Of a stretch of 64,000 nucleotides of DNA, positions 2,883 through 24,282 are shown piece by piece. Position 1 is the first letter of the stretch; the number at the start of each line of letters is the position of its first letter. The stretch comes from Patescibacteria group bacterium. GTDB lineage: Bacteria > Patescibacteriota > Minisyncoccia > Phycocordibacterales > UBA9973. The position numbers were made by a program, and so were the translations under genes. Location: the NCBI GenBank assembly GCA_040384805.1, contig JAZKIP010000004.1, positions 10,255 through 74,254 on the forward strand, given 5' to 3'. The notes beneath the pieces are model-generated. The model did no database searches, was not told the origin of the DNA, and was given only the letters and a program-made list of their open reading frames with translations.

Positions 2883-5249
2883 ATGAAAAATCATATGAAA
2901 AAAATAATAGTCGGAATCTTCAGCCTTGCTTTGCTTCTTGCTTCGCACAGCGCTTTTGCTTCGTGGAACACGGAGCCGAATGACTGTAAAAGCATCAGCA
3001 TCATCAATGCAACAACAAATCAGGGGTATCAGAATCCTTGTTGGCCGCTTTCGTCTGTATCAGCACGACCGGGCGATGTCATAAACGTAAGAATTTATTA
3101 TCACAATACAGGAACCCAGGCGGCGAACACGCGCATCGTTTTGAGCGCTCCTTCGATGGCAAGTTCTTCATCGTCAAAGTCCTTCACGGGACGAATCGTG
3201 TCTGATCAGGGCAGCTTGTCCTTCGGACCGGTAACGGCGAATCTTTCTTCGTCACAGTCTTTAACTTTCATTTCAAGCAAATGGTATACGGAGAACACGA
3301 ACGAAACATTGACACCTCTTCTTGGAGGTCAGAGCGGTTCCGAAGTTCTTACTGAAAACGGTTTGGACATAGGTTCTATCGCTCCGGGATGGAGCACTCA
3401 GGGATCGGTCGTTATCGCATTCCGCGTAAGTTCTTCGAACTCAACCGTTCAAACATGTCAGGATTCAAGCGCTACGAACTTCGGCGGACCGCTTCCGTGT
3501 ACATATGGTAACCAGTCTCAGATGTCAGGTACGCTTACTGCAAATCCGTCATACTGTACTATTCCTGCCGGAAGCTCGACATGCAGCACTATCCTTGCAT
3601 GGAACACTCTTAATCCGGTAAGCACGTCGGCAGTGACCACTCCAGGTCTTGGCACGGTAGCAACGGGCAACTCGGGCTCCCAGCAAGTCAATGTTCCATA
3701 TGGCAATCAGGTATTTTATCTCTACAATAACGGACAGCTTCTGCATCAGGCGACGGTTAACGCGTCATGCGGATCCGGATCATCATGGAACGGATCATCG
3801 TGCGTATCGACCCAGGTCAATAACTGCTACATTTCTAATTTCACTGCAAGCCAGACTCAGGTTTCGCAAGGCTCTTCTGTCACGATCAACTGGAATACGC
3901 AGAACTGCACATCGGTAAACGTGTACGGACCGGGGGGCCTCAACAGCAACAGCACGAGCGGCAACCAGACGGTATATCCGAACTCGGGAACCAACACATA
4001 TACGATTACTGCGAACGGACAGAACGGCGCCGCGCAGACTCAATCGCTTTCTGTCTACGTTAATCAAACATCAAACTGTACAATTTCAAACTTCACAGCT
4101 AACGGTTCATCCTCAGCCTACATTACCTCGGGCTCGCCGGTAACCATCTCATGGAATGCAGGCAACTTTAGCTATGTTACTGTCTCGGGACCGGGACTCA
4201 ATAGTAATAGCTTAAGCGGCAGCCAAGTGATTTACCCGACATATTCAGGAACGTATACTCTGACAGCATCGGGTTCTAATTGCGGAAATCAGACTCGCTC
4301 TGTTCAAGTAAATGTAAACAACACTATTATTCCTCAGCCTCCTGTTGTTGTTGCCGCGTGCGCCGTCACGACGATCGCGACGAATGTCACTCAGACAACT
4401 GCCATCCTCAACGGCCTTGTCTCAGGAACGCCATACGGAAGCGTTACAGGATACTTCGAATACGGACCAACAGTCGCCATGGGCTTGCGAACGCCGACGC
4501 GAACGATGAATGTTGGCCCGATTACGGAAATTGTAAGCGGCCTTGCTCCCAATACGATCTATTATTTCCGATTCTCAGCTAACTGCGGCAACGGGTTCTC
4601 AAGCGGAGCTATTCAGACTTTGAGCACTCTCGGTGCTGTACGAGTTGTCACGACTACGACAAACCCGGTCGTTGTCCAAGGCACGACGGTTATCGGCACT
4701 CAGTCTCCAATCATGCTTACGATCGAGAATCGATACGAATTTCTCGGTGTCGGCGATACCGTTGACTACACTGTCACGTATCGCAACATCGGACGGTCTC
4801 TTTTGACCCGTCCGGTTCTGCAGGTCGTTGTTCCGAAGGGCGTTGTGATCACGAACGCGTCGCGAGGTACCTACTCCGTCGATACCAATACGCTTACTGT
4901 TCCCCTTGAGGATCTCCTTCCGGGCGCAGGCGGCACTGTATATCTACAGGGACGTGTTGATCTCGTCGCTCCGGGCGATGCTCAGATCGTGACGACTGCG
5001 ATCCTCGTATATACGAATCCAAACGGTGCGCAAGAAAACGCAATTGCCTATGCGCTTAACAGACCAAAGGATAATAATACCATCAACACTCTCGGAGCTT
5101 CCGCTTTCTTTGGAGGAATCTTCCCCTCGACTCTTTTGGGATGGTTGCTTCTCCTTCTCTTGATCCTGCTCTTGATCTTGGCGACACGCCGCTACTATAA
5201 CCGCAGACCGGTTGTCGTACAGCCTCCGCACGGACCAATGACGCACTAA
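2883..5249 (+). CDS. Large Ser/Thr-rich cell-surface protein with tandem Ig/FN3-like repeats, a DUF11-like repeat domain and a C-terminal TM anchor
   Basis: Signal peptide MKKIIVGIFSLALLLASHSAFA. Two about 80-aa repeats (CYISNFTASQTQVSQGSSVTINWNTQNCTSVNVYGPGGLNSNS... and CTISNFTANGSSSAYITSGSPVTISWNAGNFSYVTVSGPGLNSNS...). An FYFRFSANCGNGF FN3-like segment. A C-terminal leucine-rich TM segment (WLLLLLLILLLIL) followed by basic residues. Confidence 0.6.
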   Translation: MKNHMKKIIVGIFSLALLLASHSAFASWNTEPNDCKSISIINATTNQGYQNPCWPLSSVSARPGDVINVRIYYHNTGTQAANTRIVLSAPSMASSSSSKSFTGRIVSDQGSLSFGPVTANLSSSQSLTFISSKWYTENTNETLTPLLGGQSGSEVLTENGLDIGSIAPGWSTQGSVVIAFRVSSSNSTVQTCQDSSATNFGGPLPCTYGNQSQMSGTLTANPSYCTIPAGSSTCSTILAWNTLNPVSTSAVTTPGLGTVATGNSGSQQVNVPYGNQVFYLYNNGQLLHQATVNASCGSGSSWNGSSCVSTQVNNCYISNFTASQTQVSQGSSVTINWNTQNCTSVNVYGPGGLNSNSTSGNQTVYPNSGTNTYTITANGQNGAAQTQSLSVYVNQTSNCTISNFTANGSSSAYITSGSPVTISWNAGNFSYVTVSGPGLNSNSLSGSQVIYPTYSGTYTLTASGSNCGNQTRSVQVNVNNTIIPQPPVVVAACAVTTIATNVTQTTAILNGLVSGTPYGSVTGYFEYGPTVAMGLRTPTRTMNVGPITEIVSGLAPNTIYYFRFSANCGNGFSSGAIQTLSTLGAVRVVTTTTNPVVVQGTTVIGTQSPIMLTIENRYEFLGVGDTVDYTVTYRNIGRSLLTRPVLQVVVPKGVVITNASRGTYSVDTNTLTVPLEDLLPGAGGTVYLQGRVDLVAPGDAQIVTTAILVYTNPNGAQENAIAYALNRPKDNNTINTLGASAFFGGIFPSTLLGWLLLLLLILLLILATRRYYNRRPVVVQPPHGPMTH

Positions 5250-5850: not shown

Positions 5851-8268
5851 ATGGCTAAAAAGACGGCAGATAAAAAAAGACTCGTTTTGCTCGATAGCCA
5901 CGCGATTATTCATCGGGCATATCATGCGCGTCCCGAGTTCATGAATTCCAAGGGCGAGCCGACCGGGGCTATCTATGGCCTTGCAACCATGCTCTTTAAG
6001 ATCATCACCGAGCTTAAGCCCGACTATATCATCGCCTGCTACGATCTGCCGAAGAAGACCTTCCGTCATGAAGCGTATGATGACTATAAGAAAGGACGGG
6101 CGAAGACCGATGATGCTCTTGTCGCTCAGCTCATCCGTTCGCGCGAATTTTTCAATGCCTGCTCAATCCCGATTTACGAGCATGAAGGATTCGAAGCCGA
6201 TGATATTCTTGGAACGATTTCGGAATATATCGTAGCAGAGGATAAAGACTGCGATGTCATCATCGCGTCCGGCGACATGGATACTCTGCAGCTTGTCACG
6301 AATGACCGGGTCCAAGTGTATACTCTCAAGAAGGGGATCAATGACACTATTTTATACAATGAGAAAAAAGTCGTAGACCGGTTCGGCTTTATTCCCCAAT
6401 ACTTGCCAGACTATAAGGGCCTCCGCGGAGATCCGTCGGACAACATTATCGGCATTAAGGGCATCGGAGAAAAAACTGCAACGATTCTTATCGGCGAGTT
6501 CGGCACGATCGAAAAGTTGTACGAAACCCTTAAGAAGAGTCCCGAGAAGTTCAAAGCTCTCGGCATATCCGACAGAATATTCGCGTTGCTTAAGGAGGGC
6601 GAAGAGGAAGCGCTTTTCTCAAAAACCCTTGCGACTATCCGTCGCGATGCGCCGATTGATTTTAAGCTGCCGTCGAAGGCATGGAAGGAAGACGTCGACA
6701 GCAGCGCGGTTGCGTCGTTTTTCCGCGAGATGGAATTCAAGAGCCTTCAGGGAAGATTCTTGAGCGTTGTCGGAGGGGACAGTCCTGAAGTTGCGGAAAA
6801 AGGATCGGCTGCAAGCGGCACAGAAACAGTCACAGAAGAAATATCATACAGCGAAGAGGATAAGGAAAAAATAGCCAAGGCTAAGATTGCCTTTTGGCTC
6901 CTTAATTCAGAGGCAACCGATCCGGATCTCGATGACGTTATCCGCTACAAGGGAGCGGTCACTCTCGATGAAGCGCTCATAAAACTTGAGTCGGATATTG
7001 AAAAGAATAATCTCTCATATGTCTATTACAACATAGAGATACCCCTGATTCCTCTTATTGCGTCGATGGAGAAAGTCGGAATTCTGATCGATAAGAAGTA
7101 CCTTGAAAAGATTTCAAAGGAATATCATCGCGAGCTGCAAAAGATAGAAAATAGCATCTGGAAGCTTGTCGGAAGGGAATTCAATGTCAATTCGCCCAAA
7201 CAGTTGGGAGAGGTCCTTTTCGACGATCTCGGCCTTACTGTTAAGGGAATGAAGAAGTCCGCGGGAGGCGCGCGCTCGACCCGCGAAAGCGAGCTTGAAA
7301 AACTGCGTGACCTCCATCCTGTCATCTCGATGATTCTAGAGTACCGGGAACTTCAGAAATTGCTCTCTACATATATCGATACCATCCCCCATGCTATTGC
7401 TCCGGACGGACGACTTCACGCGCGATTCATTCAGGCGGGCACGACGACCGGGCGCTTCTCATCGTACAATCCGAACTTGCAGAATATACCGATCAAGAGC
7501 GAACGAGGGAAGAATATCAGGAATGCATTTATCGCGTCACCCGGATTTGTCTTGGCGTCATTCGACTATTCGCAGATTGAGCTTCGGGTAGCGGCGCTTC
7601 TGTCGCAGGATTCATATTTCATTCAGGCGTTCCGGGACAAAAAGGATATTCACGCGGCTGTTGCCATGAAAGTTTTCAATGTTGATGAGAATCACGTAAC
7701 AGCGGACATGCGTCGAAGGAGTAAGGTTATAAACTTCGGCATTCTCTACGGCATGGGAGTCAATGCTCTTCGGACCAATCTCGGCACTGACCGGAAAGAT
7801 GCTCAGATTTTTTACGACAACTATTTCTCTGAGTTCCCGACGATCGCCGCCTATCTTAAAAGCATTGCGAATTTCGCCCGAGAGAATGGCTACACAGAAA
7901 CTCTCTTCGGCCGCAAGCGCTATTTCCCCGGTATCCGATCGCCATTGCCCTTCGTGCGCGCTATGGCTGAGCGCATGGCGACAAACGCTCCTATCCAAGG
8001 GACGGCGACGGCTGACATCGTCAAGATCGGCATGAAGAAAGCGCATGACGAGCTTAAGAAAGCCGGAATTCTTGACGATACGCGCCTCGTATTACAGGTT
8101 CATGACGAGCTTATCTATGAAATACGGGAAAGTGCGGTCACGCAGGCTATGAACATCATTGAAAACGCCATGAGGGACGCGATTCCGTCCCAATTTCTAA
8201 AGGGCATAGAGCCTGTTCCTCTCGACGTATCGTCGTGTTTCGGCAAGACATGGGGCGATCTTAAATAG
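5851..8268 (+). CDS. polA: DNA polymerase I (5'-3' exonuclease + polymerase domains, Taq-like short form)
   Basis: N-terminal FEN-like domain (LLDSHAIIHRAYHA ... GIKGIGEKTA). Polymerase motifs RRRSKVINFGILYGMG and QVHDELIYE. The likely true start is the ATG at 5851 (MAKKTADKKRLVLLD). The ORF track gives 5779. Confidence 0.9.
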   Translation: MAKKTADKKRLVLLDSHAIIHRAYHARPEFMNSKGEPTGAIYGLATMLFKIITELKPDYIIACYDLPKKTFRHEAYDDYKKGRAKTDDALVAQLIRSREFFNACSIPIYEHEGFEADDILGTISEYIVAEDKDCDVIIASGDMDTLQLVTNDRVQVYTLKKGINDTILYNEKKVVDRFGFIPQYLPDYKGLRGDPSDNIIGIKGIGEKTATILIGEFGTIEKLYETLKKSPEKFKALGISDRIFALLKEGEEEALFSKTLATIRRDAPIDFKLPSKAWKEDVDSSAVASFFREMEFKSLQGRFLSVVGGDSPEVAEKGSAASGTETVTEEISYSEEDKEKIAKAKIAFWLLNSEATDPDLDDVIRYKGAVTLDEALIKLESDIEKNNLSYVYYNIEIPLIPLIASMEKVGILIDKKYLEKISKEYHRELQKIENSIWKLVGREFNVNSPKQLGEVLFDDLGLTVKGMKKSAGGARSTRESELEKLRDLHPVISMILEYRELQKLLSTYIDTIPHAIAPDGRLHARFIQAGTTTGRFSSYNPNLQNIPIKSERGKNIRNAFIASPGFVLASFDYSQIELRVAALLSQDSYFIQAFRDKKDIHAAVAMKVFNVDENHVTADMRRRSKVINFGILYGMGVNALRTNLGTDRKDAQIFYDNYFSEFPTIAAYLKSIANFARENGYTETLFGRKRYFPGIRSPLPFVRAMAERMATNAPIQGTATADIVKIGMKKAHDELKKAGILDDTRLVLQVHDELIYEIRESAVTQAMNIIENAMRDAIPSQFLKGIEPVPLDVSSCFGKTWGDLK

Positions 8269-8303
8269 TAGCGGAAAGTCGCCAGTGTGATAGGATTATA
8301 AGT

Positions 8304-8804
8304 ATGAAAACCGAAGTCTCTCTGAAAAAAGAGTATGAAAAAATAAGATCCGGCATGGTTCATATCGTCCTTTCTTATTCGTATGTCATGTTTCTTATGG
8401 CTGTCGTCGCGGGACTTGTTCTTGATCTTGTATATCATATCACTATCTTTTCCGGACCGTTTTATTCATATGCCGGATTCATCATGATCGTAGCGGGATC
8501 ATACCTTGTCTATTGGGCCCAATCGACATCCCGCTGTACGAAAGAAGAGATGAAGAAAGGACTCACTGGGCGTGATTTTGAGCGCGGGCCCTACAAATAC
8601 AGCCGTAATCCGACGCATCTCGGTCTCACGCTCATGACGCTCGGATTGGGATTGATACTGCACTCGTTTTTTTCCGTTGTGTGCATTATTGTCGCCTCTG
8701 TTATCAGCAAGTTTATCTTCCTAAAAAAGGAAGAACGTTTGCTTGAGAAAAAATATGGACAGACCTATTGTGAGTATAAGAGAAAAGTAAGAACGTGGGT
8801 ATGA
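8304..8804 (+). CDS. Membrane methyltransferase, isoprenylcysteine carboxyl methyltransferase (ICMT)/PEMT-like family
   Basis: Multi-TM protein with an RNPTHLGLTLMTLGLGL motif of the ICMT/NnrU family. Confidence 0.5.
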   Translation: MKTEVSLKKEYEKIRSGMVHIVLSYSYVMFLMAVVAGLVLDLVYHITIFSGPFYSYAGFIMIVAGSYLVYWAQSTSRCTKEEMKKGLTGRDFERGPYKYSRNPTHLGLTLMTLGLGLILHSFFSVVCIIVASVISKFIFLKKEERLLEKKYGQTYCEYKRKVRTWV

Positions 8805-9442
8805 TTCATATTCTTGTCGGCGCCGATACGAAGAAAAGAAGCGCTTTCTTGAAAACACTGATTGGTTCGCGCGAGTCTCTTCGCCTTGAAGGCGCCTCTC
8901 TTTCGGAGAGTGTCGTTGCGCAATATGCCGAGGAAACGAGCCTTTTCGGAGAATCGCCTGTCATTATTCTTGATGGGGCGTTTTCTCAATCAGGCATAGC
9001 TTTCTCAGCGAAATTTTGGGAACAACTTAAAAACTCACTAACCGTTTTTGTCTTTCTGGAAGACAATCTTCGTGCCACTGACGAAAAGAAATATGTAAAA
9101 TACGCTTCTGTCGAGCGATTTGAAGAAAAGAAATCAACGGCAAGAGAGCAGAAAAAAACCGACCCTTTTGCCCTTGCCGAGGCTTTCGGACAGCGAGACA
9201 AGATCGGAGCGTGGATGCTCTACCGCGAAGCAGTTGAGAAAGGAGCTGATCCTGAACCGATCTCGGGAATGCTCTTCTGGAAGATAAAAACGATGACCCT
9301 TACGGGAACTCGCCATTTCGAGGCTATGGAGTTGAAACGGCAATCGCGCGATCTTGTCGATTTATATCACCGGGCTCATCGGGGAGAATGCGACTTTGTC
9401 ATCGGACTTGAAGAGTTTATCCTTTCCTCTCTTTCGAAATAA
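8795..9442 (+). CDS. holA: DNA polymerase III delta subunit-like protein (short HolA)
   Basis: N-terminal MIHILVGADTKKRSAF and C-terminal PFALAEAFGQRDKIGAWMLYREAVEKGADPEPISGMLFWKIKTM resemble the HolA clamp-loader delta fold. Overlaps the upstream gene by 10 bp. Confidence 0.45.
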   Translation: MGMIHILVGADTKKRSAFLKTLIGSRESLRLEGASLSESVVAQYAEETSLFGESPVIILDGAFSQSGIAFSAKFWEQLKNSLTVFVFLEDNLRATDEKKYVKYASVERFEEKKSTAREQKKTDPFALAEAFGQRDKIGAWMLYREAVEKGADPEPISGMLFWKIKTMTLTGTRHFEAMELKRQSRDLVDLYHRAHRGECDFVIGLEEFILSSLSK

Positions 9443-9509
9443 ATGCTAAAATAGAGGAAGCTGGAGAGACCTCATCGGCGATGTAATCTCTCCAGTCGGA
9501 CCCACTTCT

Positions 9510-9767
9510 ATGGAATCTATCTTAAAATCTGACATATTCTTTTTCATTACTTCCATTTCTGTCTGCATCATAACTGTTGGTCTCATCGTCGGCTTTTATT
9601 ATTTGATTAAGATAATGAAAAACATCGCCGATATATCCGAGACGGTCAAAAAATCAGTTCATGCGGCGGAATCGGAAATTGAGGAATTGGCAGAGCGCGT
9701 TTCTGACAGTACAGTGTTTCGAATGTTCTTTGGACGAAAGAAGAAAAAGAAGAAGGAAGTTCGATAA
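9510..9767 (+). CDS. Small membrane protein with Lys-rich C-terminus
   Basis: Single TM segment (FFFITSISVCIITVGLIVGFYYLI). Tail GRKKKKKKEVR. Confidence 0.4.
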   Translation: MESILKSDIFFFITSISVCIITVGLIVGFYYLIKIMKNIADISETVKKSVHAAESEIEELAERVSDSTVFRMFFGRKKKKKKEVR

Positions 9768-10293: not shown

Positions 10294-10612
10294 CTAGGAG
10301 TCAATTCTCAGTTTTCCGGGTGGAAGCGAGGACTGGCTCCTGGGCCTTTTGGCTTTTTAGGAACGCGCACTGTGTAGTGCTCTATGAATGAACGAATTAT
10401 TCGTCTGTAATTATTTCCCTAATGTGTGAGTCTCATATAGACCGGATATTGGAAACAATGCAGTGAAAGCAACTTGCATACATTATACAACAGGAACCCG
10501 TTAAAATCAAAGAAAGGTGGGGATAAGTCATTATATTAGAAGAATCTATTTTGACAGATCTAAGTTTTTATGTTAAAAAGGAGGAAAATCGTAATCACCT
10601 TAAAACTTTCAT

Positions 10613-11080
10613 ATGCAAATCAAGACACGTATTACCGAAAAACAGCAATTATTGAAGCAATATGCCCATAAACTGTATGAAATTATTCAAACCAAAGATC
10701 CTATCTTCCGGCTCTCTTTTGCCTCTTTTTTCAAGAAAAGAAGATTCTCGGAAAAAGAAGAAGCTCTCCGTTATGCTATCCTGTATACTTTTTGGGATAG
10801 ATTCACAGGTCATACCCTCAGAAAGGAGATGGAAAAAGTATTCGGCAAAATCTCCGATGATGTTTTAAAGAAAATATTCAACGAGCACGAATGGCGGATA
10901 ACATCTCTTCCGGGTTACAGAGTATTCCGAAATTATCTGCGAAATGATGCATCTCTGACTGAAATTAAGATGAATATTGAATCGCTGATGAATCGAATTG
11001 AAAATCCTATTCTTTTAATTACTCCCAAGATGGATAATGGATCTCCCTTTATTTTGGCCTTAAGCATTTGCTTATGGTAA
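10613..11080 (+). CDS. Hypothetical protein; possibly the N-terminal part of a frameshifted DnaA-C-like gene
   Basis: No motif recognised. Overlaps the next ORF by 13 nt in another frame. Confidence 0.3.
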   Translation: MQIKTRITEKQQLLKQYAHKLYEIIQTKDPIFRLSFASFFKKRRFSEKEEALRYAILYTFWDRFTGHTLRKEMEKVFGKISDDVLKKIFNEHEWRITSLPGYRVFRNYLRNDASLTEIKMNIESLMNRIENPILLITPKMDNGSPFILALSICLW

Positions 11081-11367
11081 TGAGAATATTTTCTATCCTT
11101 GAGAAGGAAACCGGATTTACAAAAGAGCAGATCAGGGAAAAATCAGGAGAAGGCAAATTGGTAAGAATACGTTGTCTCGTTCTTGCGGCATTTGGCGGAT
11201 TTTATCCGCAGGCGCCATTAAAAGTCCGCAGTTCTATTGTCGGCGGGCATGAGCATACGAAAGCATTATATTACCAGAAGCGCCATAAAGAGGAATTTTC
11301 AGTTTTTGATGATGAATACAAGGAAATTCTTTATATCGTAGTGAAAAGATTGAATCAGAGTTTTTAA
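11068..11367 (+). CDS. Small protein with a DnaA domain-IV-like (Bac_DnaA_C) helix-turn-helix
   Basis: EQIREKSGEGKLVRIRCLVLAAF ... SSIVGGHEHTKALYYQKRHKEE parallels the DnaA C-terminal DNA-binding domain (KSKRRTRNVARPRQIAMYLAK ... FGGRDHTTVLHA). Confidence 0.4.
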   Translation: MLMVMRIFSILEKETGFTKEQIREKSGEGKLVRIRCLVLAAFGGFYPQAPLKVRSSIVGGHEHTKALYYQKRHKEEFSVFDDEYKEILYIVVKRLNQSF

Positions 11368-11447
11368 AGCAGTTTTTTTCTAGAGTATCTCCGAAAGGGG
11401 ATGCTTTTTTGATTCTTTGGATAGTCAAAACAGTTTATTAATGCATG

Positions 11448-11560
11448 TGTGCCGAGGAGAGGACTTAATTATAAACATACTTTCCGACCGATCATATATG
11501 GAAAGTCTATACAGTAAGCTCCTCTTTATCAAGGCTATGCAGAAAGAGGAGACAATAACC
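11448..11560. repeat. Direct repeat copy A (112 bp, about 96 percent identical to 12998-13110)
   Basis: TGTGCCGAGGA(G/C)AGGACTTAATTATAAACATACTTTCCGACCGATCATATATGGAAAGTCTATACAGTAAGCTCCTCTTTATCAAGGCTATGCAGAAAGA... It lies immediately 3' of the fic stop. It contains a 7-bp hairpin ACTTTCC/GGAAAGT. Confidence 0.85.
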
Positions 11561-11572
11561 TAAACATCAAGA

Positions 11573-12721
11573 TTATCGAGAATCAGCAAAGATATCTACA
11601 TATTTCTTATAAATATAAGATTGACCATATTTCTTATCTTTATCTTTTTGAGAAAGGATACCCATTTCAATAAAGCGATCAATAACTATTTGTGCACCAA
11701 CACGGGTGAATCCGGTCCATTTCTGAATAAGAGCAATATTTACAATTGGCTGTCCATAAAGTTTTGGTAAAACAACCATAGAGCTCTCAGAAGCACGCTT
11801 GCCGAGCATCTGTACTTTTTCCATATCTTTCTCACGAAGAGTAGTAACTTTACTCACAATATCAATTGCTTCATTTGCAATCTCAATTACACCATCAAGA
11901 AAGAAATCTACCCATTCAGAGACTTCGCCCTTGTGATAGCCAAAAAGTCTCTCATAATAAAGCTCTTTGTGCTTCTTGAAGAATGAAGACAGGAATAGGA
12001 CGGGCTTTTCAAGATAACCCTCTTTCCAAAGATAGAATGTAATGAGCATTCGCCCTGTTCTTCCATTACCATCAAGGAATGGGTGAATTATCTCAAACTG
12101 TGCATGAATGAGTGCTGATTTTATGACTGTGAGTATAGCATCATTAGAATGCATGAACTTTTCAAGGTCAGTAAGTGCTTCATTCATTTCAGCTACTGGA
12201 GGAGGAACAAAGCGAGCATTATCGGGGCGCGTACCACCGATCCAGTTTTGACTTTTACGAAATTCTCCTGGATCAGAAAAGTGGGTAGCACGGGCTTCAT
12301 GCATAAGTTTCTTGTGCAATTCTCGTATGAAGCGGAGAGTCAAAGGAAAGTCATCATCAGTCACACGCTTCATTCCATAGTTTAGAGCGTTGATGTAATG
12401 TAAGATGTCGTCAACATCTTCAGGAATATTTGTATTGATTTGCACTTCTGCTTCAATGGCGTCTACCATTGTCGCCATCGTTCCTTCTATCTGACTTGAT
12501 GATGCGGCATCTTTTCTTAAGTACATCAGTAAGAAAAAATCAGCATCGGGAAGAAGTTTAGTAATACCATCAAGTTTGCCGAGAAGTCGTGTTGCTTGAT
12601 CACTTTTCTTGAGAATTATAGGGTCAAACTCAAAATAACCTTTTGGTGGGAAAGGTCCTGGAATGAAGGCTTTAAACCCCTCAGGCTGAGCTTTAATTGT
12701 TCCAATTTCAAAGGATTTCAT
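11573..12721 (-). CDS. fic: Fic family protein (AMPylator-type toxin domain; class II with intramolecular inhibitory helix)
   Basis: Canonical Fic motif HPFLDGNGRTGR (around 12040-12080). Inhibitory (S/T)xxxE(G/N) motif SSQIEGT N-terminal to it. C-terminal winged-helix-like region. Confidence 0.85.
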   Translation of the reverse strand: MKSFEIGTIKAQPEGFKAFIPGPFPPKGYFEFDPIILKKSDQATRLLGKLDGITKLLPDADFFLLMYLRKDAASSSQIEGTMATMVDAIEAEVQINTNIPEDVDDILHYINALNYGMKRVTDDDFPLTLRFIRELHKKLMHEARATHFSDPGEFRKSQNWIGGTRPDNARFVPPPVAEMNEALTDLEKFMHSNDAILTVIKSALIHAQFEIIHPFLDGNGRTGRMLITFYLWKEGYLEKPVLFLSSFFKKHKELYYERLFGYHKGEVSEWVDFFLDGVIEIANEAIDIVSKVTTLREKDMEKVQMLGKRASESSMVVLPKLYGQPIVNIALIQKWTGFTRVGAQIVIDRFIEMGILSQKDKDKKYGQSYIYKKYVDIFADSR

Positions 12722-12799
12722 AGCTTGTTTACATGTTTATTTGAATGTATACAAAGTATATCAGTTTGTATACATTGAGTCAATAGATGTAAACAAACT

Positions 12800-12925
12800 T
12801 TATATCACTTCCTGCTGATAACACTTCTCGCAATATATAATTTCAGATCTTTCAGGTGAATAAGAGGTTTCAAATTCATTTAAGCAATTTCCCTCATGGG
12901 AGATTTTGAGTTTAGAGAAGGTATT
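12800..12925 (-). pseudogene. 3'-terminal remnant of a paralog of the Cys-rich gene 13112-14839
   Basis: Minus-strand translation ...NTFSKLKISHEGNCLNEFETSYSPERSEIIYCEKCYQQEVI* aligns with the C-terminus of the neighbour (...ENCSNEFETAYSPDQPDIVYCESCYQQEVV*). About 65 percent nucleotide identity over 100 bp. An in-frame stop lies upstream. It sits in the fic promoter region. Confidence 0.6.
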
Positions 12926-12997
12926 TTACAAAAGTGTTAATCGAGAAAATCCTGCTAAATCAACGGGTTCTTCTCGATTTATAAAATCTTCTCAACT

Positions 12998-13110
12998 GTG
13001 CCGAGGACAGGACTTAATTATAAACATACTTTCCGACCGATCATATATGGAAAGTCTATACAGTAAGCTCCTCTTTATCAAGGCTATGCAGAAAGAAGAG
13101 ATAATAGGTA
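12998..13110. repeat. Direct repeat copy B (112 bp), immediately 3' of the Cys-rich gene stop
   Basis: See copy A. Differences are confined to 3 short sites. The plus-strand ORF 12906-13115 runs through it. Confidence 0.85.
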
Positions 13111-13111
13111 C

Positions 13112-14839
13112 TTAAACTACTTCTTGTTGATAACAGGATTCACAGTAGACTATATCTGGTTGGTCAGGAGAATAGGCTGTTTCAAACTCGTTCGAGCAGT
13201 TTTCCTTCATACATTTTCTCTGATAAAGATTAATACCTGTTCTTTGCTTAAGTCTTTCGAAAGTTCTACAGTTTGAACACAAGCGTGGTAATGGAACTCC
13301 AAGCTTTCGATACATCTGTAACTCATCAGGGATTATCTTAAATGCTGTCGTACAGAGTTGATTACATTCACCCCTATGAGCGCATCGGATCACTTTGTTC
13401 AGGATATCCTCATTTACATCTTTTATATGATTGGGTAAATCTTCAGACTCTATGTCTATACTATAATTTCTTTCTATATCATCTTCCCACACATACCCTG
13501 CCTTTCTAGCTTCTTCTTTAGTCAGAGGGAAATATTCTTGTGCGAGAGTAGTATGATACGAAACTGGGGAGAGTTCTGCGGGAAAAAATTCTCCGTACTT
13601 ATAGATATTTCCATTTTTATCTACATACGGCATATCATCTATGTGTTTTTTAATTTTCTCAACAAGCGTGAGGTACTCTTCCTTCGTATATTCTTTGTTC
13701 AAAATACAATATTTCTTGTTGCGAAGCCCGATACACGCAAAAAGATTCTCGGATCCTCTAGTGCAGAACATCGAGTACTCCAAGTCATGCACATTTTCTT
13801 GGCAGAGGACGCAGAACTTGATATTTTGAGTTCCCACACCGCAAGAGTGGCATTCGTATACAAGCTGATTATTATCACCCCATATAGAATAGTCCATACA
13901 ATCTTCACTTCCTGGAGATTCTTGAACATACTGACAATAGCGCATATTCCGACTATCGCGTACAAGCATAGATTTGTGTATGTCTTTGGAGTGATCTATA
14001 TAATTACCAGAAACTTTATCATTTTGGAGTCCTTCAATGAATTTATTTGGAAATTTTAGCCAAAATTCTGCAACCTGTTTTTTAATTTCTGTAAGATTTT
14101 TATAAGAGCCGATATCGAAAGATTTTATTTTCTCTTCGCATTCTTCTTTAGAGTATTCTTCATTGAAGATACAGTATGACTTCTTGCGGAGATTCACACA
14201 ACCAAAGCAATCATTACAGCCCACACAATTCTTGGAAAACATCATATTGAAAGAGTTTACGCATTGTGAGGAGAAGAGTGAGTTATTACATTGAGTAAGC
14301 CAAAATCCTTCATAGCAAAATTCACATTTAGAAATGTGAGAAATGTCTATGCAGAAGCGTGATTGATTGATTCCGTGACCGTACATACAATCCTCTGGCT
14401 CTTTTGTATTAAAAACTAGATAGCTATTCTTTGGGTTACTCGCATGATTTGCGTATGGGCTGTTAACCTCGAATGTAACTCCTCGGTCTCGAATCGGCAC
14501 TCTCTTTAAAAGCTCGAAAAATTGGACAAAGAATGGCTTGGAAAAATCATAGTCCACTCCATACTCCATAGGATCCCATTCGTCTCCTTGCCATATTTCA
14601 TTCTCATACACTTTAATTCCTGATTCTGGTGAGAACATAGCAAGAATATCTTTCCCAGTGAAATCAGTCTTTCTTTTATAAAGCACTCTCTCATTGCGAA
14701 AAGTGAATCGTCTTTGCGCTCGGCATATATAGCAAAAAGTTGGAGGAGGAACTTTTATCTTCTCATAAAATGAAAAATCGTCAGGTTCAATATTAAAGGA
14801 GTTTTTACAGTTTTGGCAATTTCGAGTCTCAGGATTCAT
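13112..14839 (-). CDS. Cysteine-rich cytoplasmic protein with many CxxC zinc-ribbon-like motifs and an internal duplication
   Basis: No signal peptide. More than 40 Cys. N-terminus CQNCKNSF ... FCYICRAQRRF. Repeated units such as CVGCNDCFGCVNLRKKSYCIFNEEYSKEE and FACIGLRNKKYCILNKEYTKEEY. C-terminus CSNCRTFERL ... CMKENCSNEF ... VYCESCYQQEVV. Family not recognised. Confidence 0.6.
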   Translation of the reverse strand: MNPETRNCQNCKNSFNIEPDDFSFYEKIKVPPPTFCYICRAQRRFTFRNERVLYKRKTDFTGKDILAMFSPESGIKVYENEIWQGDEWDPMEYGVDYDFSKPFFVQFFELLKRVPIRDRGVTFEVNSPYANHASNPKNSYLVFNTKEPEDCMYGHGINQSRFCIDISHISKCEFCYEGFWLTQCNNSLFSSQCVNSFNMMFSKNCVGCNDCFGCVNLRKKSYCIFNEEYSKEECEEKIKSFDIGSYKNLTEIKKQVAEFWLKFPNKFIEGLQNDKVSGNYIDHSKDIHKSMLVRDSRNMRYCQYVQESPGSEDCMDYSIWGDNNQLVYECHSCGVGTQNIKFCVLCQENVHDLEYSMFCTRGSENLFACIGLRNKKYCILNKEYTKEEYLTLVEKIKKHIDDMPYVDKNGNIYKYGEFFPAELSPVSYHTTLAQEYFPLTKEEARKAGYVWEDDIERNYSIDIESEDLPNHIKDVNEDILNKVIRCAHRGECNQLCTTAFKIIPDELQMYRKLGVPLPRLCSNCRTFERLKQRTGINLYQRKCMKENCSNEFETAYSPDQPDIVYCESCYQQEVV

Positions 14840-14914
14840 ACATGTATTATATCAGTTTCTATTCCAATCTAGGTCATCAAAAATGACCTTTGTAAAATAG
14901 AGATGAAATTCGTG

Positions 14915-14987
14915 TGCGCCCGGTAGGAATCGAACCTACGACCATCTCCTTAAAAGGGAGCTGCTCTACCGACTGAGCTACGGGCGC
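14915..14987 (-). tRNA. tRNA-Lys (anticodon TTT)
   Basis: Reverse complement GCGCCCGTAGCTCAGTCGGTAGAGCAGCTCCCTTTTAAGGAGATGGTCGTAGGTTCGATTCCTACCGGGCGCA folds as a cloverleaf: 7-bp acceptor, D-stem GCTC/GAGC, anticodon loop CTTTTAA, T-stem GTAGG/CCTAC with TTCGATT loop. Confidence 0.85.
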
Positions 14988-15217
14988 GTGATAAATAAGT
15001 TATATTATAAGGCTAAAATCTTATTTTGTGGGCTAGGAATGACCTATCTAAGTAGACCAACTCCCTAAATCAGATAAATACTCTGCAATCAATATTATTG
15101 ATTAATAAAACCGACTTTCCCAATATAGCAGACTTTTTGTTCAATCGCCAATGCTGTAATTGACTTTAAGTGTGGCATAGACTGATCTAAGAAGAATATA
15201 TGCTAATATATTGAAAT

Positions 15218-16264
15218 ATGGAGAATATGCAATTTAATCCTAAAATGGAAATGCAGAAAAAGCTCGGTATGGATTTTGTTTCCCTGTATACACCTACCGT
15301 AGTAAATGAAATAAAAAATATATTAGAATCATCTTTAGTTCAAGATGGAATAAAGCTTTCAGAGAAAGGGGTAAAGATAGGGGTAACGAAAGGTATTTTT
15401 AATATTAAAATAGGATTATCCAAGAAAAACATATTTAAAACTTCGATGCTTGAAGCCGAAATAATAATCGGCAATCAAAGCAACTCCATAGAGGTCAAAA
15501 GCGAATCCTATGAAGGGAACGATGCTTTGAAAGAAAAAATAAAACCTTTAATAAAGAATCTTATTTCAGAACTTAAGAAATTTATTGAGAACAAATTCAA
15601 AGAAAAACCGCTCCAAATACAAATACAAGGAGAGAGTCTTGAGATAGGATTTGAAAAAATGTTTGAAGAAAAACCTCTATACGATGGCAAGACATGGAAT
15701 TTAAAAAGTAAAAGTAAAGATGGTTCTGAAGTTACTCTGCAAGATTCTCAGGGCGAACTTAAAAAAGTTAAAGCTGAGCAAGTCGTAATTCTTCTTCCGG
15801 AAGATAGATTTAAAATGCCCGAGCATATAAAAAATAATGATCTTGAAAAAAGAAGATGGGAAGAACTTCACAAGGTTCCCTTGGAAAAAATCCCTTTTTA
15901 TTTTAGACCACTGCTGGTAGGTTTTGGGCCAGTGCCAATGTATCCAAACCAGTGGGACGATCTGGAAAAATATGTGGTAGAAGAATCTTCTGACACAGCA
16001 GACAGAACCACATTTATGAGAGGATTGTCTGATAATTATTTTATCAATGAACGCAAAGAGCTTGAAGAATTGCACAAAGGCAAAACTCTTCCTTACGATG
16101 AAGATAGTATTTGGGGGACTTTAGTTTTTAAAACTTTAACCTACTTTGGAAAAGCTAAAAAAGCTGGACTAATAAAGCAATCTTTAGAAGAATTCTTACA
16201 AGATACCCACAAAGAAATCAATCAAAAGTTTGATGATGAAGCTCGGAGCAATACTAAACTTTAG
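15218..16264 (+). CDS. Hypothetical Lys/Glu-rich protein (AT-rich codon usage, no signal peptide)
   Basis: Long ORF with no recognised motifs. Bracketed by tRNA-Lys and a near copy of the tRNA 5' end (see findings). Confidence 0.4.
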   Translation: MENMQFNPKMEMQKKLGMDFVSLYTPTVVNEIKNILESSLVQDGIKLSEKGVKIGVTKGIFNIKIGLSKKNIFKTSMLEAEIIIGNQSNSIEVKSESYEGNDALKEKIKPLIKNLISELKKFIENKFKEKPLQIQIQGESLEIGFEKMFEEKPLYDGKTWNLKSKSKDGSEVTLQDSQGELKKVKAEQVVILLPEDRFKMPEHIKNNDLEKRRWEELHKVPLEKIPFYFRPLLVGFGPVPMYPNQWDDLEKYVVEESSDTADRTTFMRGLSDNYFINERKELEELHKGKTLPYDEDSIWGTLVFKTLTYFGKAKKAGLIKQSLEEFLQDTHKEINQKFDDEARSNTKL

Positions 16265-16491
16265 CTCTTTCTCTAATCACTTTAAAGGTTATTCAAATCC
16301 ATTTGACTTCGCACAGATCCTCTATAGATAGGTCTGTGCAGTTGAAATTGATGAGCCACGGGCGCGCGATCTTGTAAAAGTTATTTCGCAAGTACACTCA
16401 AAAGTATCATATTTTATGGCAAAAAACAACCAGATAATTAAATACCCTTATGCCACTCTCTATTGACATATGATCTACAATCTGTTATATT

Positions 16492-18276
16492 GTGCGAATG
16501 ATATATAACCTTAAAAGAGGATTAGGTAAGGCTTTTAATAAAAAACAACTTTCAGCATTCATAATCGCAGTGGTTATTTTCTCTTCTTTTAACATCGCTA
16601 CAACGCAGGCATTCTCGTCCAAAGGATCATTAAGCGCGGATTTCAGGGAAAACAAGATCGAAATTACCCAAGATGCGCCTTCTCCTAAGCCGATTACAGC
16701 AGATGCCCTTATTTTTAACACAGATGCGCCCCAAGCGATAAAGGCTGATGCTATAACACCACCTGCACACCCGCTTACAACGGACCTTATTCCCACGAAA
16801 GAAGTTGCGCCAAACAAACCAATGAGTCCGTCTCTGATGGTTACGTCTCCGAATGGCAATGAAATATATACCGAAGGACAACAGATCAATGTCACATGGA
16901 TCGCGTCTTCTATATCCTCAACCGCGTCTATAATAATCTCACTTGTCGTTTCTGACCAGAATGACACTTTGCTTGGAGATATGACATTACTAGTATCGAC
17001 GCCCAATGACGGACAGCAGATGGTAACATTGCCCACGATAGATTATATTCAACGCATAGTCCCGGAATTCAACATTGTTGTCCCCGGAAGACACTTCAAG
17101 ATTCTTGTCGGAAGCGATGATGTAAATTCTCCTCTCTACGATTTTTCCGATGACCTTTTCTCAATCAGTAAGCCATCATCGACAGCTTGTACTATTAACT
17201 CTTTTATCGTACCAACACAGACGATTGCATCACAGTTAAGCGCAACAGTCTCGTGGTCTTCCGATTGCAGTAATGTAATTCTTGAAGCAAACTCCGGTTC
17301 ATATACGCTCCGCCATGCCGGGAACGGGACGGGAAGATATACGTTCTCCGCGCCGCGCGGAACCACGTTTTCAAGCGCAGATAACACCCTTGATATGACA
17401 ATCATCGGAGGAAATAATACTGTTGGTGCAGGAACTGTGTCTGTGACAAAATCCGTACCGATCATTAATATTGCCAATCCCGCTTCAAACCAATGTGATT
17501 TCCTCTCTCTTTCCGGGGAGTCGGTTCCTTTTTCTCAGGGAATGGAGGCGCATTTACAATGGCAAGCTCCTGCAGGATGCATGGTTTATGTCGAAGCATG
17601 GAGAGCGACTCCCAACGGATTAGAAAGCAAGTCCATTTTCAAACCCGTAACGTATTATTTCAATGCCGCTGACTCTGTGAACGTGCCGCTTGTGGAAGAC
17701 TCGACGACATTCTACATTTCAGCCCAAGCCGGCTCTCAAAACTCTTCCGGAAGCAGGATGGTTCTTTCCGCCAAGACGATCGATGTGAAGCAAAATGTCT
17801 CACCGCAGATGTGTCTACAATCCACACCGGGCTTTCACATTGTTGCACTCAATTCAAACTCTCCCGCGTCGGCTATGATTCGTCGCGGCGCTACTAATGT
17901 CGAATTTGGCCGATTCGATATAGTTAATACTGGCCAAATCGATATTTGCGGATTAAATAGTATCCAAATCGGCTCACATAGTAATAATAATCTGACGAAT
18001 ATTCGAATGGTCGACGCTTCTACCGGATCTCAAATCGGGCAAACTGCAGCAATGGTCAATAATAATGGATCATATTATTATGAATGGATAAATCCAGCAT
18101 CTCCCATACAACTTTCCATTGGCATGACAAAAACAATCAAGATAGTCGCCGATGTTCCTCTTTCAGTGTCGACAGGAATTGCTCGATTGGGAATTTTGGG
18201 GACTAATTTTATATTCCCTGGAGCGTATGCAAATACTTCCATGCCTGTTTTAGGGAATGTGATGATGATTCGATAA
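16492..18276 (+). CDS. Secreted Ser/Thr-rich surface protein
   Basis: Signal peptide LSAFIIAVVIFSSFNIATTQAFS. Low-complexity S/T/N-rich mature region. Confidence 0.5.
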   Translation: MRMIYNLKRGLGKAFNKKQLSAFIIAVVIFSSFNIATTQAFSSKGSLSADFRENKIEITQDAPSPKPITADALIFNTDAPQAIKADAITPPAHPLTTDLIPTKEVAPNKPMSPSLMVTSPNGNEIYTEGQQINVTWIASSISSTASIIISLVVSDQNDTLLGDMTLLVSTPNDGQQMVTLPTIDYIQRIVPEFNIVVPGRHFKILVGSDDVNSPLYDFSDDLFSISKPSSTACTINSFIVPTQTIASQLSATVSWSSDCSNVILEANSGSYTLRHAGNGTGRYTFSAPRGTTFSSADNTLDMTIIGGNNTVGAGTVSVTKSVPIINIANPASNQCDFLSLSGESVPFSQGMEAHLQWQAPAGCMVYVEAWRATPNGLESKSIFKPVTYYFNAADSVNVPLVEDSTTFYISAQAGSQNSSGSRMVLSAKTIDVKQNVSPQMCLQSTPGFHIVALNSNSPASAMIRRGATNVEFGRFDIVNTGQIDICGLNSIQIGSHSNNNLTNIRMVDASTGSQIGQTAAMVNNNGSYYYEWINPASPIQLSIGMTKTIKIVADVPLSVSTGIARLGILGTNFIFPGAYANTSMPVLGNVMMIR

Positions 18277-22288: not shown

Positions 22289-22363
22289 GGTCCCGTCGTT
22301 CAATGGATAGGACGTAACTTTGCGGAAGTTATGATGCAGGTTCGATTCCTGCCGGGATCACCA
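22289..22363 (+). tRNA. tRNA-Arg (anticodon read as GCG; encoded CCA)
   Basis: GGTCCCGTCGTTCAATGGATAGGACGTAACTTTGCGGAAGTTATGATGCAGGTTCGATTCCTGCCGGGATCACCA. Acceptor GGTCCCG/CGGGATC (one G-U), D-stem GTTC/GGAC, anticodon stem TAACT/AGTTA with loop TTGCGGA, T-arm GCAGG-TTCGATT-CCTGC. Confidence 0.75.
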
Positions 22364-23973
22364 AAAACAAAACTTCGGTCTTCAAGAACCCTGAAGCCAT
22401 TTCTGCATTGATAAGCTAGGGTGTCGTGGGAAAACCTGATTTCGGAAAATACCTTCGTGATGATTTGCTGCTTTTCGCTAGGGTTTGCCAATTTATAGTA
22501 TAGATACGCATCCCTGAGGATTTCGGAAAGTTTTACAAGGTCTTTTACGACTTGGTTCAATGGGATATCCGCGCTGTCTTCTTTATTCGCTATTTCCTCT
22601 AACTTTTTTTCTAAGCGCATCTCTTCATTTATGTAATCCTGAGGAGTAAAAACACCGCTCTTCAGTAGGGTAAGTTTATTCATCTGCAGGTACTGGATTT
22701 CTTCCTGAGTTTTCCTTTTCTCCCTCTCTATTTCGACAGCTTCTTTCTTTCGGCGTTCTTCTAAGATAGATAATACTGTTTTAATCCGAGAATCAATCTC
22801 CCGGAGTTCGTCTTCGCTGTAAAAAAGCTGGGATATTTTTTCACCGATAGTATCCTCGATAAAAGCAGAGTTAATACTTCTAAGCGTGTTAGAACAACCA
22901 AAACAACAACGGCTCCCGTAATAATGAATTCCTTTCTTTTCATAGGGCGTATAAACTCTGTTGCAATGGAAACACCTTACGATACCTCGATAGGGGAAGT
23001 AAATCTTATCAGTGTAGTGTACGCTGACGTTCTTCTTCGCAAGTATGCTTTCAGCTCTATAAAAGAGTACTGGGTCAATAATCGGTGCATGGCTTTTGCT
23101 CGGAACCCATTTCCTGCCATTACCTCTTATCTCACCAATATAAAAGCGATTCCTCAGAATCCAGTGGATATGGTTGAAGGTGATAGGCCTGCATACTTTA
23201 TCGATAACTAGTTCTTTGTTTGAAAGCATTTCTTTCAAGCTCCTCTTTCGTCTTACGGCAGGCATCGTGAGACCCTGTTCGTTCGCCCACTTTGCAAGGT
23301 CTATCAGGCTCCACGTTCCCTCAACATACTTTTCAAAGATTTGCTTTATAATTGGAGCTCGTTCCGGGTCGAAGGGTTTATAATAAGGATTTCCCTGATT
23401 AAGGTAGCCGATAGGTGCACGATAGGTACAAATACCCTCATCTCTTAATTTTGTCAGTGCGAAGCGTATCTTTTCGCTTGTAACCCGTGAATGGTGTTCG
23501 GCGAATACTCCGTCAATATCCCGATAAAGCTCGCCTCCAGAATTATTCTCGTAACGAACTAAGACAAAATGCACATCGCTCCCTTGCTTCATAAGTTTAT
23601 TAAGAATACTGTTATCGCTTTTATTACGGCTTATTCTGTCCCAGCAGAGGGCTATAACGCCTCTAATAGCGCTATCATTCATTAGCTGTGTAAGCTTATG
23701 GAACTTGGGCCGCTCTGTATAGTATTGAACCGAACCGTCATCGCGAATCGTTAAGTCCTTATCTTCCTTGAAACCTGTATGCTTTTCTATGATAAATCCC
23801 GATTCGCAAAATCCTTCGATATTCATTGAGGCGATAGGGAGGTTTGCCGATTTAACGTACTTGAGAATCTCCTTCTTTTGGTACTCAATGGAATTCTGCT
23901 GACTATCGGAATCATCCGTACTACGACGAATGTAAACGAGGTACTTATCTTTGTATGGTAACTCTTGACGCAT
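22300..23973 (-). CDS. Large serine recombinase (integrase) with its 3' end reading into the tRNA-Arg gene
   Basis: Resolvase-type catalytic domain (YLVYIRRSTDDSDSQ ... IALCWDRISRN). Recombinase domain. Zinc ribbon CFHCNRVYTPYEKKGIHYYGSRCCFGC. C-terminal coiled-coil. The last 21 codons overlap the tRNA. Confidence 0.85.
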   Translation of the reverse strand: MRQELPYKDKYLVYIRRSTDDSDSQQNSIEYQKKEILKYVKSANLPIASMNIEGFCESGFIIEKHTGFKEDKDLTIRDDGSVQYYTERPKFHKLTQLMNDSAIRGVIALCWDRISRNKSDNSILNKLMKQGSDVHFVLVRYENNSGGELYRDIDGVFAEHHSRVTSEKIRFALTKLRDEGICTYRAPIGYLNQGNPYYKPFDPERAPIIKQIFEKYVEGTWSLIDLAKWANEQGLTMPAVRRKRSLKEMLSNKELVIDKVCRPITFNHIHWILRNRFYIGEIRGNGRKWVPSKSHAPIIDPVLFYRAESILAKKNVSVHYTDKIYFPYRGIVRCFHCNRVYTPYEKKGIHYYGSRCCFGCSNTLRSINSAFIEDTIGEKISQLFYSEDELREIDSRIKTVLSILEERRKKEAVEIEREKRKTQEEIQYLQMNKLTLLKSGVFTPQDYINEEMRLEKKLEEIANKEDSADIPLNQVVKDLVKLSEILRDAYLYYKLANPSEKQQIITKVFSEIRFSHDTLAYQCRNGFRVLEDRSFVFGDPGRNRTCIITSAKLRPIH

Positions 23974-23988
23974 ATAAATTATTATGTC

Positions 23989-24219
23989 TTAATTTTTAAC
24001 TTTTTGCAAAAATCTTTTCCTCTCATCATCAATTGATACTCCTTCAGCGACCAATCGGAGCCGTATTTTCTGCAAGATATCAGTAAAACCGGAGATATTT
24101 TCTATCTCCTCATCTGAAAATATATTCGGTGTTTGATTGTCTGAATCAGTATCCATAATCAAACCTCGAGTTTTAACCGCCGGCGGTTCTTGTGGGTACA
24201 ACCAGACGGTTAATCTCAA
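23989..24219 (-). CDS. Small acidic hypothetical protein (possible recombination directionality factor or regulator)
   Basis: Immediately upstream of the integrase on the same strand. No motif. Confidence 0.3.
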   Translation of the reverse strand: MRLTVWLYPQEPPAVKTRGLIMDTDSDNQTPNIFSDEEIENISGFTDILQKIRLRLVAEGVSIDDERKRFLQKVKN

Positions 24220-24282
24220 AAGGTATGATATGAGAATATCAAAAGACCACCCGAACGAGGGTTACACTAATTTCCTATTAAA

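Follow-up and report, generated by a model that had tools for sequence, protein, structure and literature searches.

SoFic has been reported as a stand-alone Fic-domain anti-phage protein (Millman et al., 2022; bioRxiv 10.1101/2022.05.11.491447). It is described as a toxic AMPylase that acts as a dimer and has a regulatory C-terminal domain, and the Sofic of E. coli is accompanied by a 47-amino-acid antitoxin, AS1, encoded downstream (PMC12249575). Here, we describe a fic gene of this type in a Patescibacteria group bacterium (GenBank assembly GCA_040384805.1). The stretch analyzed, referred to below as the window, comprises 64,000 nucleotides (nt) of contig JAZKIP010000004.1 (positions 10,255–74,254, forward strand). 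The fic gene lies between two nearly identical copies of a direct repeat, U-A and U-B, beside a resident gene for a Cys-rich protein and a short stub related to that gene. With moderate confidence, we favor the reading that the locus is a horizontally acquired SoFic-type single-gene anti-phage module, which carries a stub of its former neighbor and was inserted with a target duplication of ~115 bp. It is then of an already known kind, a horizontally acquired defense gene with an ordinary insertion scar. The features on which the argument rests are listed here in window coordinates.

11447..11567, no strand assigned: repeat copy U-A, the distal flank of the insert (ungapped core 11448–11557, gapped extension to GTTTAG at 11562–11567; the end of Logan unitig L094, 11489, lies inside the core)

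11573..12721, minus strand: fic open reading frame (ORF), 382 amino acids, class II Fic of the SoFic type (Pfam Fic_N and Fic; PADLOC SoFic; PDB 3EQX/3ZCN; motifs)

12722..12799, minus strand: fic promoter and four-box operator, ~78 nt (promoter scan; architecture shared by other loci)

12800..12895, minus strand: 31-codon Cys-rich stub, EGNCLNEFETSYSPERSEIIYCEKCYQQEVI and stop (homology to the Cys-rich family gene of another lineage; read as passenger DNA)

12896..12996, no strand assigned: spacer of ~100 nt, origin unassigned (imperfect hairpin with arms at 12939–12952 and 12966–12979)

12997..13119, no strand assigned: repeat copy U-B, the proximal flank (core 12997–13106, running into the stop and last codon of the Cys-rich gene; the edge of Logan unitig L001, 13038, lies inside the core)

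13112..14839, minus strand: resident Cys-rich gene, 575 amino acids (conserved Patescibacteria family without a Pfam or NCBIfam match)

14914..14987, minus strand: tRNA-Lys(UUU), just upstream of the Cys-rich gene and outside the repeat (tRNA scan)

The DNA homology between this locus and those of other species spans 12802 (the stub stop codon) to 11571 (2 nt past the fic stop), and the flanks beyond these points are unrelated. Homologs of the Fic protein at 75–95% identity number in the thousands; 80 GTDB species representatives were fetched with flanks for comparison. They are mostly Patescibacteria, together with some large contigs labeled Actinomycetota, Gammaproteobacteria, Planctomycetota, KSB1, and others (labels unchecked), a foreign distribution. 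At locus L009, whose Fic protein is 95% identical, hsdS and hsdR of a type I restriction system enclose the module, and a HEPN/AbiV gene is adjacent; at L010 and L011, other genes flank it, and many loci have an HsdS-like C terminus just upstream of fic or an HsdR N terminus just downstream. These boundaries in unrelated contexts support the proposal of an initial annotation of this DNA that fic and its promoter form a discrete inserted cassette. The 1.44-kb interval between the U copies encodes fic only. The plasmid and phage collections searched held Fic homologs of at most 42% identity, and no vehicle was identified there.

At residue 213 of the Fic protein is the active-site motif HPFLDGNGRTGR, which matches the core HxFx(D/E)GNGRxxR (Pfam Fic, E = 1.2e-19). 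The inhibitory motif SSQIEG at residue 75, inside the Fic_N match (residues 38–117), agrees with (S/T)xxxE(G/N) and is N-terminal to the Fic core. Since both motifs occur on one polypeptide, the protein is assigned to class II of the classification of Fic proteins by Engel et al. (2012), as had been annotated. It matches the PADLOC SoFic model PDLC03963 (E = 1.6e-108) almost end to end, with residues 15–379 on profile positions 5–359 of 361. Residues 36–377 align to the Shewanella SoFic structures 3EQX and 3ZCN (E = 1e-24) with the C-terminal domain included; 3EQX was deposited under the title "Fic domain containing transcriptional regulator." The NCBIfam equivalog score of the Fic protein is 136 bits, below the cut-off of 550. 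On every sequence criterion tested, the protein belongs to the class II Fic and SoFic defense families.

Inverted repeats at 12723–12798 overlap the fic promoter and are arranged around its elements in the following order.

12798–12787, minus strand: operator box1, GTTTGTTTACAT

12783–12778, minus strand: –35 element TTGACT (promoter scan)

12775–12764, minus strand: operator box2, ATGTATACAAAC

12760–12755, minus strand: hexamer of the extended –10 element TGaTATACT (promoter scan)

12755–12745, minus strand: operator box3, TTTGTATACAT

12734–12723, minus strand: operator box4, ATGTAAACAAGC

The promoter scan returned TTGACT-17-TGaTATACT, a sigma-70-like promoter with 10 of 12 matches plus the TG. 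The four boxes, each of 11–12 bp, make two inverted pairs around the –35, the –10, and the 5' untranslated region. The layout GTTTGTATACAT, 4 nt, TTGAC, 3 nt, ATGTATACAAAC, 3 nt, TATACT, TTGTATACAT, ~9 nt, GATGTAAACAAAC, ATG is shared by 77 of ~80 loci. Variants of box2 and box3 co-occur per locus (Fisher p = 4e-8, for loci that are not phylogenetically independent). The nested inverted repeats had been suggested as a likely operator, and retention of the four-box layout in 77 loci strongly supports this. The promoter may be autorepressed by the C-terminal domain of the module's own product. To our knowledge, the four-box operator has no prior description.

Two sets of observations on the wider family of fic loci are recorded here. 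A subgroup (L013, L014, L015, L017, L020, L024, L036, and L079) has a DnaA-box-like sequence, TTATCCACA, ~8 nt upstream of operator box 1, and several of these loci have a conserved small ORF directly 3' of fic, some with a Cys-pair, zinc-ribbon-like pattern. A conserved hairpin element of ~65 nt (TAAGGWGTCTTGGCTTTTGGGCATTCACCCC..CCCCTCTGCCCAAAAGCCAAGACAAAAA), which has no Rfam match, begins at the fic stop codon in ~19 species. It also follows unrelated same-strand neighbor genes, giving a layout like a cassette array (L025, 2901–2979 and 5147–5233; L090, 2386–2475 and 4458–4542; also L033, L064, L068, L077, and others). This element may represent a family like repetitive extragenic palindromic (REP) sequences or terminators, or a recombination site.

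The two ~112-bp copies reported to flank fic were confirmed. They align over 110 nt without gaps (11448–11557 and 12997–13106) and are identical at 107 positions (97%), with three mismatches at 11459, 11548, and 11553 and an identical core of 86 nt. If a 3-nt indel is allowed, the similarity extends by 8 more bases and takes in GTT TAA (13117–13112) and GTT TAG (11567–11562), for a full length of ~115–118 nt. The edges are sharp, and the sequence past either end is unrelated. As annotated, each copy lies just 3' of a minus-strand stop codon, beginning 5–15 nt from it. The first bases of U-A, GTT-TAG, mirror the GTT-TAA end of the resident Cys-rich gene and not the ATA-TAA end of the stub, which argues that U-A was copied from the end and flank of the resident gene. 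U was not present in the 3' flanks of seven Cys-rich ortholog loci (L002–L008), which have ordinary terminators. The 97% identity therefore reflects a recent copy rather than long-term constraint on an old conserved element.

Several identities for U were considered. The window contains two copies, and an exact 26-mer from the core had no match in public genome, metagenome, and viral contig collections; so far as testable, the unit is thus not a generic repeat family, the possibility left open when it was first annotated. Translation of U in four frames gave no match among 5.8 billion proteins. Rfam at gathering thresholds, applied to the window and 14 fic loci, returned two tRNAs only, so U is not a known RNA. 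Origin as a tRNA fragment was ruled out by a tRNA/tmRNA scan, and there is no overlap with tRNA-Lys. U folds no better than shuffled sequence (z = –0.16 for the minus strand and –1.8 for the plus strand). The attC core sites RYYYAAC and GTTRRRY have no match on either strand of either copy. Derivation from a miniature inverted-repeat transposable element or an insertion sequence was rejected on the terminal inverted repeats, for which the ends match at only 8 of 25 positions. An integrase att site was likewise rejected: the insert holds no recombinase gene, U does not overlap a tRNA, and other loci have repeats of different sequence and length. An ORF on the plus strand stays open through both copies; its reading as the relic of a convergent gene was set aside on the dissimilar C termini of the relatives' convergent neighbors. 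U-A also contains a 35-amino-acid ORF with a TTG start (11425–11532, minus strand) 3' of fic, without an obvious ribosome-binding site; the equivalent frame in U-B is open for 29 codons. It is the only candidate for an AS1-like gene at this locus and, by its position, recalls the 47-amino-acid AS1 of E. coli Sofic.

The stub is homologous to the C terminus of the 575-amino-acid protein (20 of 29 identities; BLASTP E = 7e-14). The initial annotation had described a 41-codon remnant. Its homology stands, and its length does not: the stub has ~31 codons (12800–12895), and 12896–12925 has no similarity to the Cys-rich gene. A single duplication of the gene's 3' end together with the tail, with fic at the junction, had also been proposed, and this fails on unequal divergence. 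The stub and the neighbor's 3' end are identical at 62 of 93 nt (67%), the U tails at 107 of 110 (Fisher p = 2e-9); that is, 31 differences in 93 against 3 in 110. They were therefore not copied as one piece, which would predict equal divergence. The stub and the repeat differ in age. Third codon positions account for 20 of the 31 differences between stub and neighbor, a bias indicating that these differences built up between functional genes. Over its last 31 residues, the stub shares 24 with orthologs of other lineages (e.g., ...NEFETSYSPDRPEIIYCEKCYQQEVY), 20 with the neighbor, and 17 with the tandem paralog type of L002.

The stub ends in its own natural stop codon, which abuts operator box 1. 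A related junction occurs at L049 (also recovered as L092 and L093), where a 13-codon stub, ...LVYCEKCYQQEVY and stop, has its natural stop 4 nt from box 1. The DNA homology between the window and L049 runs 42 nt into the stub. In the L049/L093 genome, the 7.5 kb upstream of fic are free of any Cys-rich gene, from which it follows that the junction predates the window locus. A scan for the stub–fic junction pattern found it in the L049 organism only. The donor arrangement, a full-length Cys-rich gene followed by fic, was found in none of the 80 fic loci and not after the ortholog with the closest C terminus, P0025. The spacer (12896–12996) resembles neither the Cys-rich gene nor any fetched locus, and neither it nor U is significantly similar to the L049 flanks. 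Judged from these sequence comparisons, the stub is best read as passenger DNA.

The Cys-rich protein itself has more than 7,500 homologs, all unnamed or unannotated, whose named sources are Patescibacteria; a hit at 100% identity lies on a 177-kb contig of a Patescibacteria metagenome-assembled genome at NCBI. The protein has no Pfam, NCBIfam, or PADLOC match. The C terminus of the family, ...YCExCYQQEV, is strongly conserved. Tandem paralogs of 579 and then 574 amino acids, 18 nt apart, occur in L002 (4290–7772), and L003 has nearby paralogs at 8001–9719 and 11900–13552.

Bracketing repeats recur at other fic loci. At every locus, the 1.5 kb on one side of fic were compared, on the same strand, with the 1.5 kb on the other, and shifted intervals served as controls. 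A repeat whose downstream copy starts less than 150 nt from the fic stop was found at 14 of 67 other fic loci and in 3 of 224 controls (p = 1.4e-7, ~16-fold); with a 15-nt limit, the counts were 7 of 67 and 2 of 224 (p = 6e-4). The repeats are locus-specific in sequence and 19–371 nt long. The repeat of L027 (113 nt, 98% identity) encloses fic and ~620 nt of passenger DNA, that of L019 is 65 nt long, that of L052 consists of 371 nt of a transposase-like gene, and that of L049 (~42 nt) has a score reached by 0 of 300 shuffles. At L086, the repeat is 88 nt, corresponding to the first 26 codons of trmD, and an intact trmD is restored after fic. Duplications at fic loci often keep the flanking gene intact. 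Some of the repeat-bracketed loci are not independent events: the members of one clade have in common an incomplete copy of a conserved hairpin element upstream of the module and a complete one behind fic. The window U pair is one instance of a general pattern, in which duplicates of local sequence enclose foreign fic segments that vary in their passenger DNA.

L086 merits separate description. There (3780–5240), fic lies inside the 5' end of trmD, and the start codon of the intact trmD is 2 nt past the fic stop. The truncated trmD copy is preceded by another fic operator, degenerate in sequence, which suggests that the site saw repeated insertion and deletion.

We propose that the module arrived on a segment of ~1.43 kb made up of the ~100-nt spacer, the 31-codon stub from the Cys-rich gene of an earlier host, and fic with its operator. 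The segment would have inserted in the 3' flank of the resident Cys-rich gene and duplicated ~115 nt of target, from the gene's last codon and stop to 12997. The outcome would be a resident gene with its 3' flank intact on one side and, on the other, fic provided with the same 3' flank. Candidate routes are the capture of linear foreign DNA between staggered or sister-strand breaks, template switching, and Campbell-type recombination of a circle on which U was already present. Where genomes are compact, duplications rather than deletions would be favored by selection. A retrotransposition-like origin, considered given the reverse transcriptase encoded elsewhere in the window, was rejected: the insert includes a promoter, has no transcript-type 3' end, and both insert ends vary among loci. 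The insert encodes no recombinase, and the window ORFs scanned include none of the tyrosine type. The 86-nt identical core may be long enough for RecA-mediated excision, which would make the insert reversible. Once in place, the Fic dimer would repress its own promoter through the C-terminal domain, and the AMPylase would be kept inactive by the N-terminal inhibitory helix until infection.

Support in the reads comes from two independent Logan unitigs of SRR26324625 that are 100% identical to the window, L001 (11518–13038) and L094 (9990–11489). Each breaks exactly 30 nt into the 86-nt identical core, as expected for a k = 31 graph if both U copies with different flanks exist in the reads.

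Some results weigh against acquisition with a target duplication. A segment carrying a Cys-gene stub has come to lie beside a Cys-rich gene, a coincidence that the reading leaves unexplained and for which the chance is ~0.1%–0.2% at ~1,000 genes per genome. It would need either weak homology-assisted targeting or a hotspot 3' of the Cys-rich family. Five of the six differences between U-A and U-B lie less than 30 nt from the stop codon (p ~0.005 against a uniform spread), and such clustering is not predicted by a simple young duplication. The k = 31 graph fits an integrated form or an empty site plus a 1,549-bp circle equally well. An empty site, with the Cys-rich gene, a single U, and the downstream genes, was found in no relative, and exact-protein look-ups of the neighboring genes for such a site returned only same-sample unitigs that break inside U; the target duplication is therefore inferred, not observed. 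Finally, the search of the source genome for U copies covered the 64-kb window.

The coincidence would vanish if the locus had arisen in situ, from tandem Cys-rich paralogs with the same tail. In that event, fic inserted after the second paralog, which was later cut to ~31 codons, and the tails were kept alike by gene conversion or selection. Such tandem paralogs exist in the relative L002, and an identical 86-nt core with differences only at its edges is what conversion would leave. We nevertheless consider this origin unlikely. With the stub at 67% and the tails at 97% identity (p = 2e-9), conversion must halt exactly at the stop codon; the stub is closer to foreign orthologs (24/31) than to the L002-type paralog (17/31); and L049/L093 has a homologous stub–fic junction with no Cys-rich gene nearby. 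The parent gene of the stub, moreover, cannot have ended in the GTTTAG that opens U-A, since the stub already has a natural stop, and the absence of the tail from ortholog loci shows that it is under no long-term constraint. A different kind of alternative takes U to be the active part. In T4-type phages, promoter/stem-loop (PeSL) repeats mediate gene shuffling. U might similarly be a functional or recombination element (a post-stop terminator, a REP-like unit, or an att-like site), with a 1,549-bp circle of spacer, stub, fic, and U integrating at another U by homologous recombination or through a recombinase acting in trans. Both copies are sharply bounded within unrelated flanks and follow a stop codon in the same orientation, the assembly graph accommodates a circle equally well, hairpin 1 of the minus-strand RNA stays paired, through a G-U, despite the substitution at 11548, and the ~65-nt hairpin element elsewhere follows fic and unrelated same-strand neighbors in the manner of a cassette array. 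These points are outweighed, in our view, and we regard an active U as improbable. There are just two copies in 64 kb, and the 26-mer core has no exact match in the three public collections; no called protein overlaps the translation of U, and no Rfam family matches it. Its folding is no better than that of shuffles, it has neither attC core sites nor terminal inverted repeats, and the repeats that flank fic at other loci are unrelated and locus-specific. The one recombinase among the window ORFs scanned is of the serine type and lies 9 kb off, next to tRNA-Arg; none of these ORFs encodes a tyrosine recombinase.

The enrichment of bracketing repeats also invites the thought that the SoFic-type module, a four-box promoter and an ORF with no recombinase, is itself mobile. 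Its insertion would then regularly make long, variable local duplications (~20–370 bp) by an undescribed mechanism, and the present insert, with its stub left from a former target, would be an example. The pathway responsible might act in trans, belong to host repair, or be tied to the DNA-binding boxes of Fic or to the protein's effect on DNA transactions. We think such mobility quite doubtful. An assembly artefact, in which two strains or molecules sharing U were mis-joined, would be suggested by the meeting of both sets of flanks in the 86-nt core, whose identity defeats phasing by a k = 31 graph. Against this, a single Logan unitig holds the spacer preceded by a U variant and fic followed by U variants, so the linkage [U...fic...U] is real in the reads. 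Assemblers with k >90, or reads of 150 nt, can phase the three variants, and many independent assemblies contain fic inserts bracketed by repeats in an analogous way. A mis-join is accordingly very unlikely.

If the locus was acquired with a target duplication, as we prefer, the Cys-rich "pseudogene" and the 112-bp repeats of this genome would be by-products of defense-gene acquisition and not of local gene-family duplication. More broadly, one SoFic clade is extraordinarily conserved (75–95% protein identity) across Patescibacteria and metagenome-assembled genomes labeled as other phyla, and it spreads as a compact unit of promoter, operator, and gene. Two aspects may be new: the four-box operator with its conservation, and the ~16-fold enrichment, around a single-gene module without a recombinase, of bracketing repeats specific to each locus. 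If the enrichment reflects mechanism, and not mere selection for insertions that spare flanking genes, it bears on how recombinase-less defense genes spread in reduced genomes. The repeats further predict precise loss of fic by recombination and hence a reversible defense content.

The surroundings of the locus have features of their own. GC content dips to 0.33–0.39 at 10300–16500, against 0.44–0.50 on either side; the dip covers two unannotated plus-strand ORFs (10613–11367), fic, the Cys-rich gene, tRNA-Lys, and a 348-amino-acid ORF without a family match. The large serine recombinase ORF (22300–23973, minus strand) has Resolvase and Recombinase domains and overlaps tRNA-Arg (22289–22363, plus strand). 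It is followed at ~24–29 kb by a low-GC block (0.31–0.35), in which three long ORFs lack a Pfam match, and 22289–29200 is probably an integrated element at tRNA-Arg. A diversity-generating retroelement occupies 44458–46669. Its variable repeat (44981–45083) is at the 3' end of an ORF (44458–45087), its template repeat is at 45408–45510, and all 28 of 28 mismatches between them are an A in the template and another base in the variable copy; the reverse-transcriptase ORF is at 45914–46669 (Pfam RVT_1, E = 1e-11). A 1,390-amino-acid ORF (47045–51217) contains internal repeats of 99 and 777 nt with 61%–74% identity, indicating a repetitive protein.

Set beside known systems, the locus resembles repeat-flanked genomic islets in its architecture: a foreign gene with its own promoter lies between near-identical direct repeats of resident sequence, near a tRNA gene region, and brings passenger DNA of an earlier context. 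Unlike in such islets, the insert has no integrase or transposase, and its repeat is long (~115 nt) and clear of the tRNA; across fic loci, the repeats (19–371 nt) are locus-specific and correspond neither to a fixed att site nor to a fixed-length transposon duplication. An integron gene cassette would likewise present a single ORF followed by an element of ~110 nt, with a similar element in the same orientation after the preceding gene, and a circular form of 1.5 kb is conceivable here. The insert differs in having no R''/R' core sites or strong hairpin and no IntI in the window, and fic carries its own promoter. Class I FicT/FicA toxin-antitoxin pairs likewise encode an AMPylase of the Fic-domain type, with toxin-like potential, under a promoter with a palindromic operator. 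At the present locus, however, no antitoxin gene of its own stands upstream, the polypeptide itself includes the inhibitory helix, and the protein is much larger, with an extra C-terminal domain. From described SoFic, the protein differs in its distant similarity to the solved structures (E = 1e-24), its score under the NCBIfam equivalog cut-off, the lack of an identified AS1-like gene for a 47-amino-acid antitoxin 3' of fic, and the occurrence of its clade in uncultivated bacteria. Protection against phage by AMPylation-dependent abortive infection, a function known from other members of the SoFic family, is putative for this protein. It agrees with SoFic in the succession of Fic_N, Fic, and C-terminal domains, the full-length profile match, the motifs HPFLDGNGRTGR and SSQIEG, its encoding by a stand-alone gene, and the frequent position of the clade next to restriction-modification genes.

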